Source: Atractiella rhizophila
Taxonomy: Eukaryota
DNA length: 64,000 nt
NCBI GenBank assembly: GCA_021432655.1
Contig: MU271182.1
Coordinates: 124,001-188,000 of the forward strand
Direction of reading: 5' to 3'
The number at the start of each line of letters is the position of its first letter. Positions within the stretch are counted from its first letter, which is position 1. A model generated the notes under the pieces. It was not told the DNA's origin and ran no database searches. It saw nothing but the letters and a program-made list of their open reading frames with translations. The translations under genes were made by a program, and so were the position numbers. This document shows, one piece after another, positions 39,732 to 44,500 of this stretch.

Positions 39732-41577
39732 TTAGACGGGGTGGACACTAGCAAGAGGACTTTCGTTTATTTGGGTTGGCTGGAGGGAAGTCGTCGATGT
39801 AGGAGGGTTGGAAGTGGACGAGCTGGTCACAGACGTTTGGTCTGAGGTTGCTTTCAACAATTTCTTCTTCTTCTTCGTCCCGCCCTAATGTGAAAACAGA
39901 AATGGAGGTAGAGAAGTCGGCAATTGTTAGTCAGAGAAGTGAAGAGTCGAAATATGCTTAAGCAGACGACGAACCTCGTCGCCAGCGTTTCCTGGCCTCC
40001 TCTTAGTCGCCTTGGCTGGTTGGCTACTATGCTCTTTTGCCTTTTCAAGCTGCGACTGTGTGAAAACGCTGTCCGGTAATGCACCACTAATCTCTCACGA
40101 TCAGCGTCACAACATCGTCGAAACTTCAGGTACCTCTTCATATATCGTACGACTAGGCACATGGTCGTCTCATCGAATCCATCCCACTGTTTAACTATCT
40201 TCGTGAATTCGTTTGTGGGATACGTGATGTCGAGTTTACGTGGGCCGGGTTGATCAGCTACGGAAAGTTCAATTGGATCCAAACAGTAAAAGCAAACACA
40301 ATACCCGGCAGTTTCTTAATCTTTAAACCAATGTAATAGCTCGCTGTTCACACTACATACCCAGAAGGAATTCCCTCGATGTCTTCTGGTTTTCGACGAA
40401 CGACCTCTTCCGGGTATTCACCGTCAAATACCTTGTTGGCTTCAGCTGAATCGACACAACAATGCATGTGGTTGAAACCTTTTGTGAAGGGATGAACCGT
40501 ATCCAGACCATAGTCATCGTACTCAAGCTTGAAAACCAACTGACGTATTTTGGATTCGACCGTCCCTGCCCTATAAAAGAAAGCACTGAGGATGGGGAGA
40601 GGGCCAGAGGCATGCGCACCATCGTAACTGACCGGATGGGTCTTGTCCAGTCGCCGAGGCAGTGATTTGTAGGTAGTATCGATACTTCGTGAAAAAGTCG
40701 TGCGGTTCAAAAAGTTCGCTCCACTCCGCCGATCCGTAGATGATCTTGTCCACTACGTTTCCAGCTGCACAGCCCGTGAGCTCGAGGGTTTGAAAGAAAA
40801 AAACGGCGCACCTCTCTCAAACTCCTCTTTCATAACCTTTTGTGTGCTAATGCTTACATTGTGGGTAGAGCACATGGACGGATAGGTAGGGGTGATGATT
40901 GGCATTCGATGTGCTTTGTCTGCCGGATAGAGCTACCCAATTTTCAATAACCTAATGATTAGCTCGACAAAGGCACGGACCTTAGGATTCCAGACACGAA
41001 AGTTCAAAGCCCCTTCTTCTATCGGTTTCAGGAGTACAGGTTGTGGCCATTTCCTGCAACAGTTCCTGAACAAGCTCTGCCCAAGGACGAGAGAAGGCAT
41101 ACCACTGATACATAATGAAGAAGAACCGCGAGACAATGCCTCCTGCATTCAAGTTTGGGTACAGCTGGCAAATTCGGGCGACTAACAAAGTCCACGCGAC
41201 ACCACCGCAGAAGCCCATGACATTTGAGTAGATGGCTCGTCGATGTGCCCAGAGCTTGATAGTCCGTAATGCATCTCGGAAAACTGGAACGGAAGGGACC
41301 AGGCAGAGGATTTCGTCCGTTACGCGAGAGCCTAGGTCGCCGGTTGGTCAATAACTATGCAGAGTTGACTACCTACCGTTCAGTGACCGAACACAACGGT
41401 CGTCCAAGCTGTTGAGCAGAGCGTCATTCAATAGTTCCAAATCTTCTGGAATCGAAGCCAGATTCAAGTGATGCAGCTCTTTGAGCAGGCTGTCGTTTGC
41501 CGTGATCTCCATCTCCTTTGGCCCTGCAATGGAAATTGGTGCGTGACACCGTACTGTTTCTGCAGCTTCATGGACAT
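39732..41577 (-). pseudogene. PAP1: Canonical poly(A) polymerase copy lacking its nucleotidyltransferase catalytic domain; introns retained; 1-bp frameshift at ~41541
   Basis: KQYGVT(P)[92 protein letters not shown] region absent. Confidence 0.92.
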
Positions 41578-44500
41578 GGCTGGGCGTCTGTGGCAGGGAC
41601 TCGCAATAAGAAAGGCAACGAAAGTCTTCATGCGTTCCAGTTTCGACGCCTTTTTTTTTGGAGAAGGTGCACCGTCTTCGCTGGCATACAATGCGCGTTC
41701 TGGAGTAGACATATTTTCTTCCCTCGCATTCGCCGCAATTTCTTCCACTCCGATTGCCTCCAGCAATTTGTCGCAATCGGTAATATCTGAAGCTTCCGTG
41801 TAAAGCTGACGTGCACGCATGATTTCCTCCCTGGCCGCGGAGTGCTTTGATTGTCCGAAGAGGAATAGGAATAGGGCCATCTTTTGCCTGCTATGAGCTT
41901 CATAGTAACCCCCAACCGTCATGCTCAAATTGACCATTTCTCCATAAAGTTCATATGCCTTAGTGAGCTGGTGGTCTTGAGCGTAAACAGAAGCGGTTTT
42001 GGAAAGGCAGTTAAGTCGACCTCCCACATCTTCCACAAACATATACAGCACTTTCGCCACCTCAAACAGTTTCAATGCTTCCTCGCTACACCCGCAACCC
42101 TGTTCGATCTCCCCCATGCCGTGAATGCAGTGGGCAAGGCCCTGAAGATCTTTCACAACTGTATACAGCTCTTTCGCCTCCTCAAACCGTTTCAACGCTT
42201 CCTCATTCCGCCCACGACGATGCTCAATCTTCCCCATGCCATGAATGCAGTGGGCAAGCCCATACGGATCCTCCACAGTCTTATACAGCTCTTTCGCCTC
42301 CTCAAACAGTTTCAACGCTTCCTCGTTATGCCCACGACCCTGTTCGATCTCCCCCATGCTGCAAATGCAGTGGGCAAGGCCACGCTGATCCTCCACAAAC
42401 ATATACAGCTTCTTCGCCTCCTCAAACCGTTTCAACGCTTCCTCGTTCTGCCCACAATACTGCTCAATCTCCCCCACGCTGTGAATGCAGTGAGCAACAC
42501 CTTGCTGATCTTCCACAACCTTATACAGCTCCTTTGCCTCCTCAAACCGTTTCAATGCTTCCTTGTTATGCTTCCAACCCTGCTCGATATTCCCCACGCA
42601 ACGAATGCAGTCGGCAAGCCCTTGCTGATCTTCCACAACCGTATACAGCTCTTTCACCTCCTCAAACCGTTTCAACGCTTCCTCCTTATGCCCGCGACAC
42701 TGTTCGATCTCCCCCATGCCGCGAATGCAGCGGGCACGGCCTTGCTGATCTTTCGCAACCATATACAACTGCCTTGCCTCCTCGAACCGTTTCAATGCTT
42801 CCTCATTATGCCCACAACACTGCTCAATCTCCCCCATGCTGTAAATGCAGTGGGCAAGGCAGCGCTGATCTTCCACAACCTTATACAGCTTCTTTGCCTC
42901 CTCAAACTGTTTCAGCGCCTCTTGTAGGTTCCCCTTCTGTCGGAATGCTGATCCAAGAGCCCGTGTCAATTCAGCGGTCAGTAAATAGAGATGGACTCTG
43001 TGCAGGATAAAGCGGACTGATACAGTGGAATGGAGAGAAGGCTTTGAAGATACAGAAAAGTCCAGGTTTCTGCTAGGAACATGTATGCTGCTTTCCGATC
43101 ATCCAGGTGTTGAAAGGCAGCTAGAAGGACATATTCAAGGTTTGGATAATCGTTGCGAAACGACAGCAGTCCGTTCCGCTCAGCTTCATCTTTGACCCGT
43201 TGTACATTTTTACGAGCCTTCTCTATGAGAGCTTCAGACAACAGCTGAAGTGACAAAGCAGTGCCTTTGAAAGGGTCAATGCTACCTAGGACCAAGCGAT
43301 TGATATGTTCGCGAATTGGTGCCAGCATGTGCAAAAGTTTAGAGTTTGTGAGGACATCCATGATGTCTTCAGCAAGTCCAACAGTTAAGATTGATGTGAC
43401 GAGCACGGAAGCCTGTTCCGATTGATGGGGACAGTTGTTATCCAAGATAGCGATAATGTCGTCCGCCAGGAGACCGTCAGGAGTCCATGATAATAAGGCG
43501 AGGATAAAAGCGCTGCGGTATTCATTTTTTCTGAGAAGCGGTGAATCGAGCGAAAAAGATATGGAAGTGGCGAGAGTGAGTGTCTCTTCGCTATCTTCGT
43601 TCCATAATACGGTGGTCTTCTTTTCCGCCCACTTCTTGGCCAAATCTGCAACCGGCTTAGTTGACTCCACGTTGGTGCGAAGAGCTTGATAGACAAGGCA
43701 TGATGGTCCAGCTTAGCGAAAATGGACTCCAGTAGTTGTTCCGCACAATCTTCTTCTCCCATGTACGTGTACTTGAACAATTTTTTTCCAGCAGCGTCGC
43801 TGATGCGTCCGATCACCAGCTTTTGAAATCTCACCTCTGTCGAATCCACGTGTTCCACCTGATGGCCTCGGTGTACTACGACGAGAATGGAACCAGAGGC
43901 ACAATCTCTGGACAGAAGGTATTGGAAGAATGATTGTAGGTTATTCTTGTCGGACCGTGCAGGAGTCTCGAAGTTATCCAACACGAGAAGACACTTGTGA
44001 GTTCGGAAATATCGTGCCACGGCGGCAGGCTCTTTTTCTCCCTGTCGGGGAGCCAATGCAAAAACCTCTTTGCAAAGGTAGTTCCAGAGAGAGGAGAACT
44101 CGGGGAAGGCATCACATCAGGCCCAAAATCGAAAGTCTTCTTCCTTTCCATCTGTCATCCTTGTGAATTCACTCTTGATTTTGTCGGCATGCAGCACTCC
44201 TAGGGCCACAGTGGACTTTCCGTTACCTGCGCCGCCGATGACGGCAAGGTGCTTCTTGTCTTCGAGAATGAAGTCTAATGCTTTCTGAACTTCGTCTTCT
44301 CTTCCATAACACGCGCCAGGAGGAGGTAGTCGAAGTTTCTTGTACACGGCAATCCGATTGTGACAGGCTGAGAAATAGCAAGTTAGCAAGCAATCCCATA
44401 GGACGAGGAATATACCTTTCACTAGCGATTGAGCAGCAGTGCACACTTCATAACTCATCGCTTCCATGTAAGCCTTCGTGCATCCCACAGCATCATTCTT

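Follow-up and report, generated by a model that had tools for sequence, protein, structure and literature searches.

The integration of decoy domains into immune receptors is established in plants, where RGA5-HMA and RRS1-WRKY are examples. The locus described here, NLR2-PAP, belongs to the basidiomycete Atractiella rhizophila: the tetratricopeptide repeat (TPR) array of a NOD-like receptor (NLR) gene, NLR2, runs in frame into a copy of the gene for poly(A) polymerase (PAP) that has lost the catalytic core. The locus lies on the minus strand of a 64,000-nucleotide stretch (assembly GCA_021432655.1, contig MU271182.1, positions 124,001 to 188,000), which is called the window throughout and to which all coordinates refer. 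In our reading, NLR2-PAP is a chimeric unprocessed pseudogene whose most likely history, at a probability that we set at about 60%, is neutral fragment shuffling in a transposon-rich NLR cluster.

Integrated decoys have also been proposed in fungi. For instance, PMC5658179 presents in these terms a P. anserina NLR carrying a zinc finger. PMC12258605, which cites the integrated-decoy model (its ref. 59), reports 185 non-canonical domains in the NLRs of Sordariales, present in 8% of these receptors, and proposes as decoys the C-terminal PKinase domains, derived from CHK-2/PRD-4, of nine Sordariales NLRs.

NLR2-PAP resembles the plant receptors with integrated domains in that a duplicate of a host protein, devoid of its enzymatic core, lies in frame at the C-terminal end of an NLR. 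However, plant NLRs have the architecture TIR/CC-NB-ARC-LRR whereas NLR2 is of the fungal patatin/TPR type, and NLR2-PAP is broken in both parts, without a paired helper, conservation in relatives or evidence of expression. It has the anatomy of such a fusion but is neither intact, nor seen elsewhere, nor shown to be expressed. With the T-NACHT-PKinase NLRs of Sordariales, as described in PMC12258605, it shares a C-terminal addition that stems from a single-copy housekeeping gene in the respective genome; those NLRs are intact and monophyletic, nine of them in two orthogroups, whereas NLR2-PAP is a single pseudogenised basidiomycete case with a PAP fragment.

The PAP part taken alone resembles an unprocessed pseudogene, since it keeps introns and flanks and carries a frameshift, a nonsense codon, an internal deletion and GC-to-AT decay, and it also resembles the gene fragments of transposon regions, with transposon ends within 15 nt of one of its borders. 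Unlike an ordinary unprocessed pseudogene, it is in frame with another gene and may show residual constraint. Compared with canonical PAP of the yeast Pap1 or fission yeast Pla1 type, it has the N-terminal 36 residues and the central and RNA-binding domains, 93% identical to those of the organism's own enzyme, but not the Pol-beta-type catalytic core (GS motif and three Asp), and its frame is broken twice.

The NLR2 frame and the PAP copy behind it

The order of NLR2 is patatin-like region, STAND NTPase and TPR array, the latter being C-terminal as in the fungal patatin-NOD-TPR NLRs. The TPR array is contained in a 544-aa stop-to-stop frame (43098..41464, minus strand) and matches Pfam TPR_12 in six stretches with 129.4 bits; Tandem Repeats Finder (TRF) detects 7.4 copies of a 120-nt period at 42028-42918. 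The patatin-like, P-loop NTPase and helical parts were traced by tblastn with the paralogue NLR1 (20545..16297, minus strand). The patatin-like region of NLR2 scores 20.8 bits, under the Pfam cut-off of 27.7, and its GXSXG motif is split by a frameshift; the same region of NLR1 scores 39.4 bits. The NTPase also remains below the Pfam cut-offs (in brackets) for NB-ARC, with 15.1 bits (23.5), nSTAND6, with 18.5 bits (27.7), and NACHT, with 14.8 bits (26.7), although a Walker A motif, GGAGNGKST, is present. The NB-ARC label that the preliminary description of this DNA had given to the region can thus be kept as a resemblance, not as demonstrated membership of the family.

Although this domain order is kept, NLR2 is not an intact NLR. 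Contiguous alignments to NLR1, which leave no room for introns, reveal four frame changes, at about 45216, 44985, 43680 and 42990. The first is a 1-base frameshift that falls in the GXSXG lipase motif (GTS / TGG); the third reads SIKLFA / LRTNV and is most simply a short slippage deletion. In addition, a TGA nonsense codon (44119-44117) stands opposite an Arg of NLR1 (FWA*CD vs FWVRCD). Together with two lesions in the PAP copy, these five make seven disabling lesions across about 5.6 kb. The five lesions of NLR2 and the TGA of the PAP copy (40350-40348) are additions to the preliminary description. A general assembly error is unlikely because other long frames of the window are intact, for example those of 865 aa in a copia element and of 851 aa in NLR1.

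The PAP copy can be modelled as nine coding pieces with seven introns of 45-49 nt, all of them GT..AG, ending in a TAA codon at 39929-39927. Both canonical domains downstream of the catalytic core are recognised by Pfam, PAP_central with 102.3 and 51.2 bits and PAP_RNA-bind with 46.7 and 24 bits, so that the retention of introns and of these two domains, already described from the letters, is borne out. The PAP_NTPase profile, by contrast, is matched at positions 153-183 of 194 only.

A word-indexed search with exon 2 (threshold E <= 1e-10) gave 693 proteins. Its top match was P0001 (KAH8929771.1, 'polymerase [Atractiella rhizophila]', 579 aa), with 95% identity, the runner-up among the best 120 of the 693 having 84%. 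Over the whole copy, 394 of 424 scored sites are identical to P0001 (92.9%), which is the intact parent of the copy and thus the paralogue whose search had been proposed. This identity, the common intron positions and the presence of parent-type contigs in the same sample (see below) mark the PAP copy as a duplicate of a host protein.

The alignment to P0001 defines the deletion as parent residues 37-160 (124 aa), lost in frame, and with them FGSYRLG, the DxD motif and the third Asp, as the preliminary description had reported for GSYRLG and the three Asp. The nucleotidyltransferase domain of a canonical PAP, with its GS motif and Asp triad, is therefore gone; what is retained comprises the first 36 residues together with the central and RNA-binding domains. 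Parent-type contigs reach the deletion from either side, one group ending at 41467 or below and the other starting at 41469 or above, with additional letters in between, and the loose end before 41469 encodes the parental QQGVFESNDGA. The TTGAAT microhomology that had been suggested for this point is not visible, one base being unaligned between 41467 and 41469; the letters of the parent's downstream flank lie outside the view of this comparison. The missing C near 41541 does break the frame: one base is lost after PAP codon 12, where the window reads ACG CA CCA for T-P-P of the parent (window sequence compared with parent protein).

Four coded sequencing runs, X1 to X4, were aligned on 38500-42027 at 80% likeness, with only part of their substitution and indel rows in view. 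X1 and X2 come from one sample, possibly the source of the assembly itself; X3 and X4 are recorded as of unknown kind or as 'DNA?', without an RNA label. X1 and X2 contain two sets of contigs, one identical to the window (for instance 39573-39864, 39844-40035 and 40211-40398) and another diverging from it by 5-10%. In both runs a 608-nt contig without a single difference covers the TPR region down to 41595. The divergent set encodes the P0001 residue at all seven non-synonymous places (12 coding rows in view) and therefore represents the parent gene, present in the same sample as the copy. Over 39573-42027 the k-mer depth of the window-identical contigs is about half that of the parent-type ones (131-176 against 261-303 in X1 and 95-151 against 156-255 in X2, approximately). 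Depth is no copy number, and this half depth may reflect either a locus carried by only one haplotype out of two or a parent sequence into which two copies have been collapsed.

X3 and X4 carry the letters of the parent and skip the introns exactly, at 40086>40134, 40257>40305, 40569>40619, 40765>40814, 40932>40981 and 41330>41376, the seventh intron being marked by a loose end at 41054. Thus, these two runs behave as complementary DNA (cDNA) of the parent gene and confirm the intron positions. Over the PAP part they contain parent-type spliced contigs only; as contigs drop rare variants, they are uninformative on the expression of the copy. X3 has no cover at 41686-41803.

Since the PAP copy keeps its introns where the cDNA-like contigs of the parent splice them out, it is an unprocessed, DNA-level duplicate. 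A processed pseudogene (retrocopy) is ruled out by the presence of all seven introns of the retained part, and the single A-run (41650-41658, sense strand) sits upstream of the PAP copy and not at its 3' side. Homology to the parent spans from 39435, about 490 nt past the stop, to at least 41624, 47 nt upstream of the ATG. The PAP part is thus longer than first described, when the whole feature was placed at 39732..42969. Parent-type contigs show loose ends before 39435, and a 30-nt parental loose end from beyond this point has no match in the window with up to three mismatches, which gives no support for a longer duplication split by the transposon.

The junction between NLR2 and the PAP copy

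The 544-aa frame reads ...CHRRPA-MSMKLQKQYGVT-HQFPLQG... up to its stop, the ATG of MSMKLQKQYGVT being at 41577. No stop codon occurs between the TPR array and this ATG, as had been noticed; the shared frame then holds for 12 codons past the ATG before it shifts. The distance from the ...DKLLEAI motif to the PAP ATG is 57 codons. The paralogues end earlier: in the alignment, the NLR1 frame stops about 95 codons before, and the NLR3 tail stops 27 aa after its matching motif, ...DVMLVRI.

When 1.84 billion representatives were scanned by HMMER for the 132-aa tail (41973..41578), only four proteins matched, all of them short TPR-tail proteins without PAP. The two of them whose records were consulted are A. 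rhizophila annotations. The best match, P0121 (274 aa, a hypothetical protein of A. rhizophila), aligns by its residues 144-254 with 41973..41641 at 54% identity (BLASTP, E 1e-34) and continues for 20 further residues before its stop; the remaining three end 6-27 residues past the conserved ...CD.LL..I motif. On the other side, a parent-type PAP contig (41469-41624; seven other letters and four gaps) reaches 41624. The reach of this contig, the NLR-type similarity down to 41641 and the ends of P0121 and its relatives therefore place the junction most likely at 41625-41640. A more conservative bracket, 41625-41713, comes from a second NLR-like DNA contig, which extends to 41777 and has a side of 64 nt. 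From the protein alignment, the PAP segment may have displaced the stop of NLR2 together with some 20 codons before it. Between 47 and about 136 nt from upstream of PAP came along, so that the copy seems to have little or no promoter.

In X1 and X2 another contig (depth 522.6 and 103.3, respectively) matches both sides of the NLR2 tail region, with joints at 41777 and 41923, without the intervening 145 nt. It corresponds to a closer paralogue or to the other allele of NLR2, in which the native form of the tail might be seen.

From 41720 to 41578 two frames out of three are free of stops, and in shuffled sequences a stop-free junction in the right frame is obtained in 17% of cases for a junction of 63 nt and in 5% for one of 135 nt. 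Because of this chance expectation and of the two open frames, continuity of the frame alone is not remarkable.

Relatives with the architecture patatin-NB-ARC-TPR-PAP, whose search had been proposed, were not encountered: there is no fused protein among the best 120 of the 693 PAP matches or among the tail matches, and no protein among those 120 combines PAP with TPR or NTPase families. The tail was likewise shared by no long protein, none of 114 candidates of 953-2720 aa having scored. A metagenome scan with the tail protein gave 102 pattern matches, none of them confirmed, and one with the 30-nt deletion junction gave no match.

Origin of the chimera

The sequence of events may have been as follows. 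A genomic, and not RNA-derived, copy of PAP, with at least 47 nt in front of its ATG and about 490 nt behind its stop, would have been placed within the final 20 or so codons of NLR2, the junction falling in frame by chance. An internal deletion of the end-joining type would then have removed 124 codons from the nucleotidyltransferase core, again without loss of the frame. The whole unit is now dead, being neither a working sensor nor a working polymerase. The anatomy, the parent gene and the lesions are observed; the order of these events, and that the fusion was never selected, we infer. This neutral history is favoured because both parts carry lesions, because chance alone would give an in-frame junction in 5-17% of cases, and because no fused relatives appeared in the searches that gave results.

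The changes accumulated by the PAP copy are consistent with decay. There are 32 amino-acid differences from the parent at 439 aligned sites, two of them being the breaks. When polarised with 93 full-length fungal PAPs from among the best 120 of the 693 matches, the parent carries the consensus and the copy the derived state at the polarisable sites; for instance, R201C, A239T and A308T affect sites kept in 87-92 of the 93 sequences. Of seven non-synonymous changes that could be polarised, six took the copy from GC to AT, and four of these six lie at CpG; with respect to X3 the window has A/T for G/C at 60 places and the reverse at 37. The substitution spectrum thus fits decay, a claim limited to CpG-to-TpG. 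RIP-like hypermutation in Pucciniomycotina occurs at TpCpG, according to PMC3318451. This context was rejected for the copy, in which the CpG transitions lie at CCG, CCG, ACG and CGA, none of the three with a visible 5' base being in TpCpG.

The rate of non-synonymous change was estimated from partial contig tables, so that the dN/dS check that had been proposed could be carried out as rough counts only. The X3 contigs of exons 2, 5 and 6 show about 30 differences in 635 nt, 13 of them non-synonymous, and X3 and X4 together show 39 in 754 nt, 14 of them non-synonymous, which gives 13-14 non-synonymous against about 17-26 synonymous changes over 635-754 nt. Since the sites number 1016 non-synonymous and 295 synonymous overall, the pairwise omega comes to about 0.16-0.26. 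When non-coding divergence (about 6-10% in the records in view) serves as neutral yardstick, the omega of the copy is 0.6-1.0.

Several observations weigh against a purely neutral history. The junction and the 124-codon deletion are both in frame, with a joint expectation of about 1.5-5.5% (the deletion counting for one third); this calculation is post hoc and suggestive. Any past expression of the PAP copy probably started from the NLR. Replacements are rarer at conserved sites, with 6 changes at 200 sites of conservation 0.9 or more and 24 at the 224 others, and mean conservation is 0.712 at changed sites and 0.789 overall (P 0.026), a test that is confounded by any changes on the parent branch. 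The omega of the copy branch is about 0.4-0.65 if almost no replacements occurred in the parent, again from rough counts in partial tables, and coding indels are few relative to the 3' flank. These signs of constraint would fit a functional period before decay. The rough counts hint at past constraint and do not separate neutral decay from former function.

Among the other histories, a former integrated decoy is unlikely. It would suppose a working NLR-PAP receptor with a dead PAP as bait, recently pseudogenised by NLR birth-and-death, of which intact alleles may segregate. Both in-frame events speak for it, as does the loss of the catalytic core with retention of the 36 N-terminal residues and of the central and RNA-binding domains. 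As the copy has no more than 47 to about 136 nt from upstream of PAP, it would have relied on the NLR for its expression, and to this are added the hints of constraint and the 14 of 14 splice dinucleotides kept. However, these 28 splice-site bases would remain unchanged 27% of the time at a divergence of about 4.5%, the constraint signal comes from partial tables and is compatible with an omega near 1 by the non-coding yardstick, and continuity of the frame has an appreciable chance expectation. The seven disabling lesions within about 5.6 kb also speak against it, as does the single instance, no fused protein having appeared in the searches that gave results. To our knowledge PAP is not a documented effector target in fungi, and no paper combining 'PAP_central' and 'NLR' was found in a literature search. 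Fungal NLRs with C-terminal domains proposed as decoys do exist, as PMC12258605 and PMC5658179 describe, and in 13 of the 17 supplementary files of PMC12258605 no PAP-type domain was found. The decoy reading is at present unsupported. Similarly unlikely is the specific picture of the wreck of a once-working basidiomycete NLR with a captured dead PAP bait, of which intact alleles may persist elsewhere in this species, in a different haplotype or isolate.

The signs of past constraint would also be accounted for if the whole PAP gene had first been duplicated as a stand-alone paralogue and had served for a time as a second polymerase. Loss of its upstream region and the internal deletion would later have brought it by accident against the NLR tail, where it decayed. 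The 3' flank within the duplicated segment and the rearrangement-prone region, with transposons on both sides, agree with this course of events, but no trace of a PAP promoter is identifiable, the NLR-type tail leaves no more than 17 nt before the last base with demonstrated PAP origin, and more steps are needed than in the other histories, so that we regard it as improbable. An assembly chimera, in which the NLR tail and the PAP copy would be unjoined in the real genome, is very improbable indeed. Contigs do break at 41595, near the junction, and no listed piece spans the whole stretch; however, the zero-difference contig of 608 nt ends there, 18 nt from the ATG, having entered the PAP leader by about 30 nt or more, and zero-difference contigs specific to the copy continue through the PAP part. 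This support for the NLR/PAP join from X1 and X2 is not independent, as both represent one sample that is possibly the source of the assembly. As for the initial proposal of a fungal NLR with a dead-PAP decoy, its anatomical part holds, since a duplicate of a host PAP lies in frame and has lost its core, but a present function is unsupported, both parts being pseudogenised. The caveat that came with it, a neutral rearrangement in a pseudogenised NLR2, is what the evidence favours.

Surroundings of the locus and meaning for fungal NLRs

The features of the locus and of its surroundings are collected in Table 1.

Table 1. Positions in the window of the parts of NLR2-PAP and of neighbouring features
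Feature	Position	Strand	Basis
NLR2 N-terminal patatin-like region	44384..45506	-	tblastn against NLR1, 48-57% identity, three frames, no room for introns
NLR2 central P-loop STAND NTPase and helical region	42990..44383	-	Sub-threshold Pfam matches, alignment to NLR1
NLR2 TPR array and capping repeats, single open frame	41785..42981	-	TRF, Pfam, alignment to NLR1
NLR2 C-terminal tail, native to its NLR family	41641..41784	-	BLASTP to P0121
Likeliest NLR/PAP junction interval	41625..41640	-	PAP contig to 41624; NLR-type protein similarity to 41641
PAP 5' untranslated leader, read as NLR-frame codons	41578..41624	-	Parent-type contig, translation
PAP copy, nine coding pieces and seven retained introns	39927..41577	-	Exon model, parent alignment, Pfam
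PAP copy 1-base frameshift, CA for parent Pro codon	41540..41541	-	Alignment to parent protein
Deletion junction, parent residues 37-160 lost in frame	41465..41470	-	Edges of parent-type contigs, protein alignment
PAP copy premature TGA, parent CGA (Arg455)	40348..40350	-	At 40350, + strand A in window, G in parent-type contigs of the four runs
3' flank of PAP gene, duplicated along	39435..39926	-	Parent-type contigs align from 39435; loose ends before 39435
40-nt repeat, probably terminal repeat of a high-copy element	39380..39419	.	Copies at 27702-27741 and 59076-59115; loose ends at 39383 and 39419
Copia-type element	10687-13284	+	865-aa frame with Retrotran_gag_2, rve, gag_pre-integrs and SH3_retrovirus
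RVT_1 frame	6495-7475		Pfam
PIF1-type helicase fragment	56485-57111	-	91.6 bits
Isolated patatin fragment	31821-31997	-	47% identical to that of NLR2
NLR3, split: TPR piece and tail	45839-46168 and 50290-50793	+	About 4 kb between the two

Downstream of the PAP copy, a 40-nt repeat ends 15 nt from the end of PAP homology, and just beyond it lies a hAT-type fragment (38543-39129; Dimer_Tnp_hAT, 27.4 bits). The three copies of this repeat are 92-100% identical, contain two CCCTAA units and, in the DNA runs, border on a stretch whose k-mer depth is very high; a high-copy transposon probably has this repeat at its ends. That a transposon captured the PAP fragment was considered and rejected, as the two hAT elements are only 68% alike over 160 nt and the NLR side has no matching terminal repeat. 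A 17-nt inverted pair of 88% identity (39751-39767 and 41617-41633) most likely arose by chance.

Between the two halves of NLR3 (46400-50200) there are hAT-transposase-like frames, for instance 48381-49004 and 49493-50200, and NLR3 looks like a case of transposon insertion into a TPR array. NLR1, otherwise intact, shows a frame change in an A9 run at about 18870-18890 on the minus strand (SDKKK / SLEVVADYF), which is either a real frameshift or a homopolymer assembly error. The gag-integrase frame of the copia-type element is apparently intact, possibly that of a young element. The PIF1-like fragment, possibly from a Helitron-type element, and the isolated patatin fragment are further signs of gene-fragment debris.

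The locus shows how transposon-rich NLR clusters pick up pieces of housekeeping genes, in a case where the breakpoints, the parent and the spectrum of decay are defined. Whether decoys are used by fungal NLRs is not a question that a dead copy can settle alone. An intact version, if there is one, would stand in a basidiomycete as the equivalent of the putative decoys proposed so far in Sordariales and would point to PAP as a guarded protein. If NLR2-PAP did once work as a bait, mRNA 3'-end processing would be a guarded target in fungal immunity, and the formation of an integrated decoy would have been caught outside plants.

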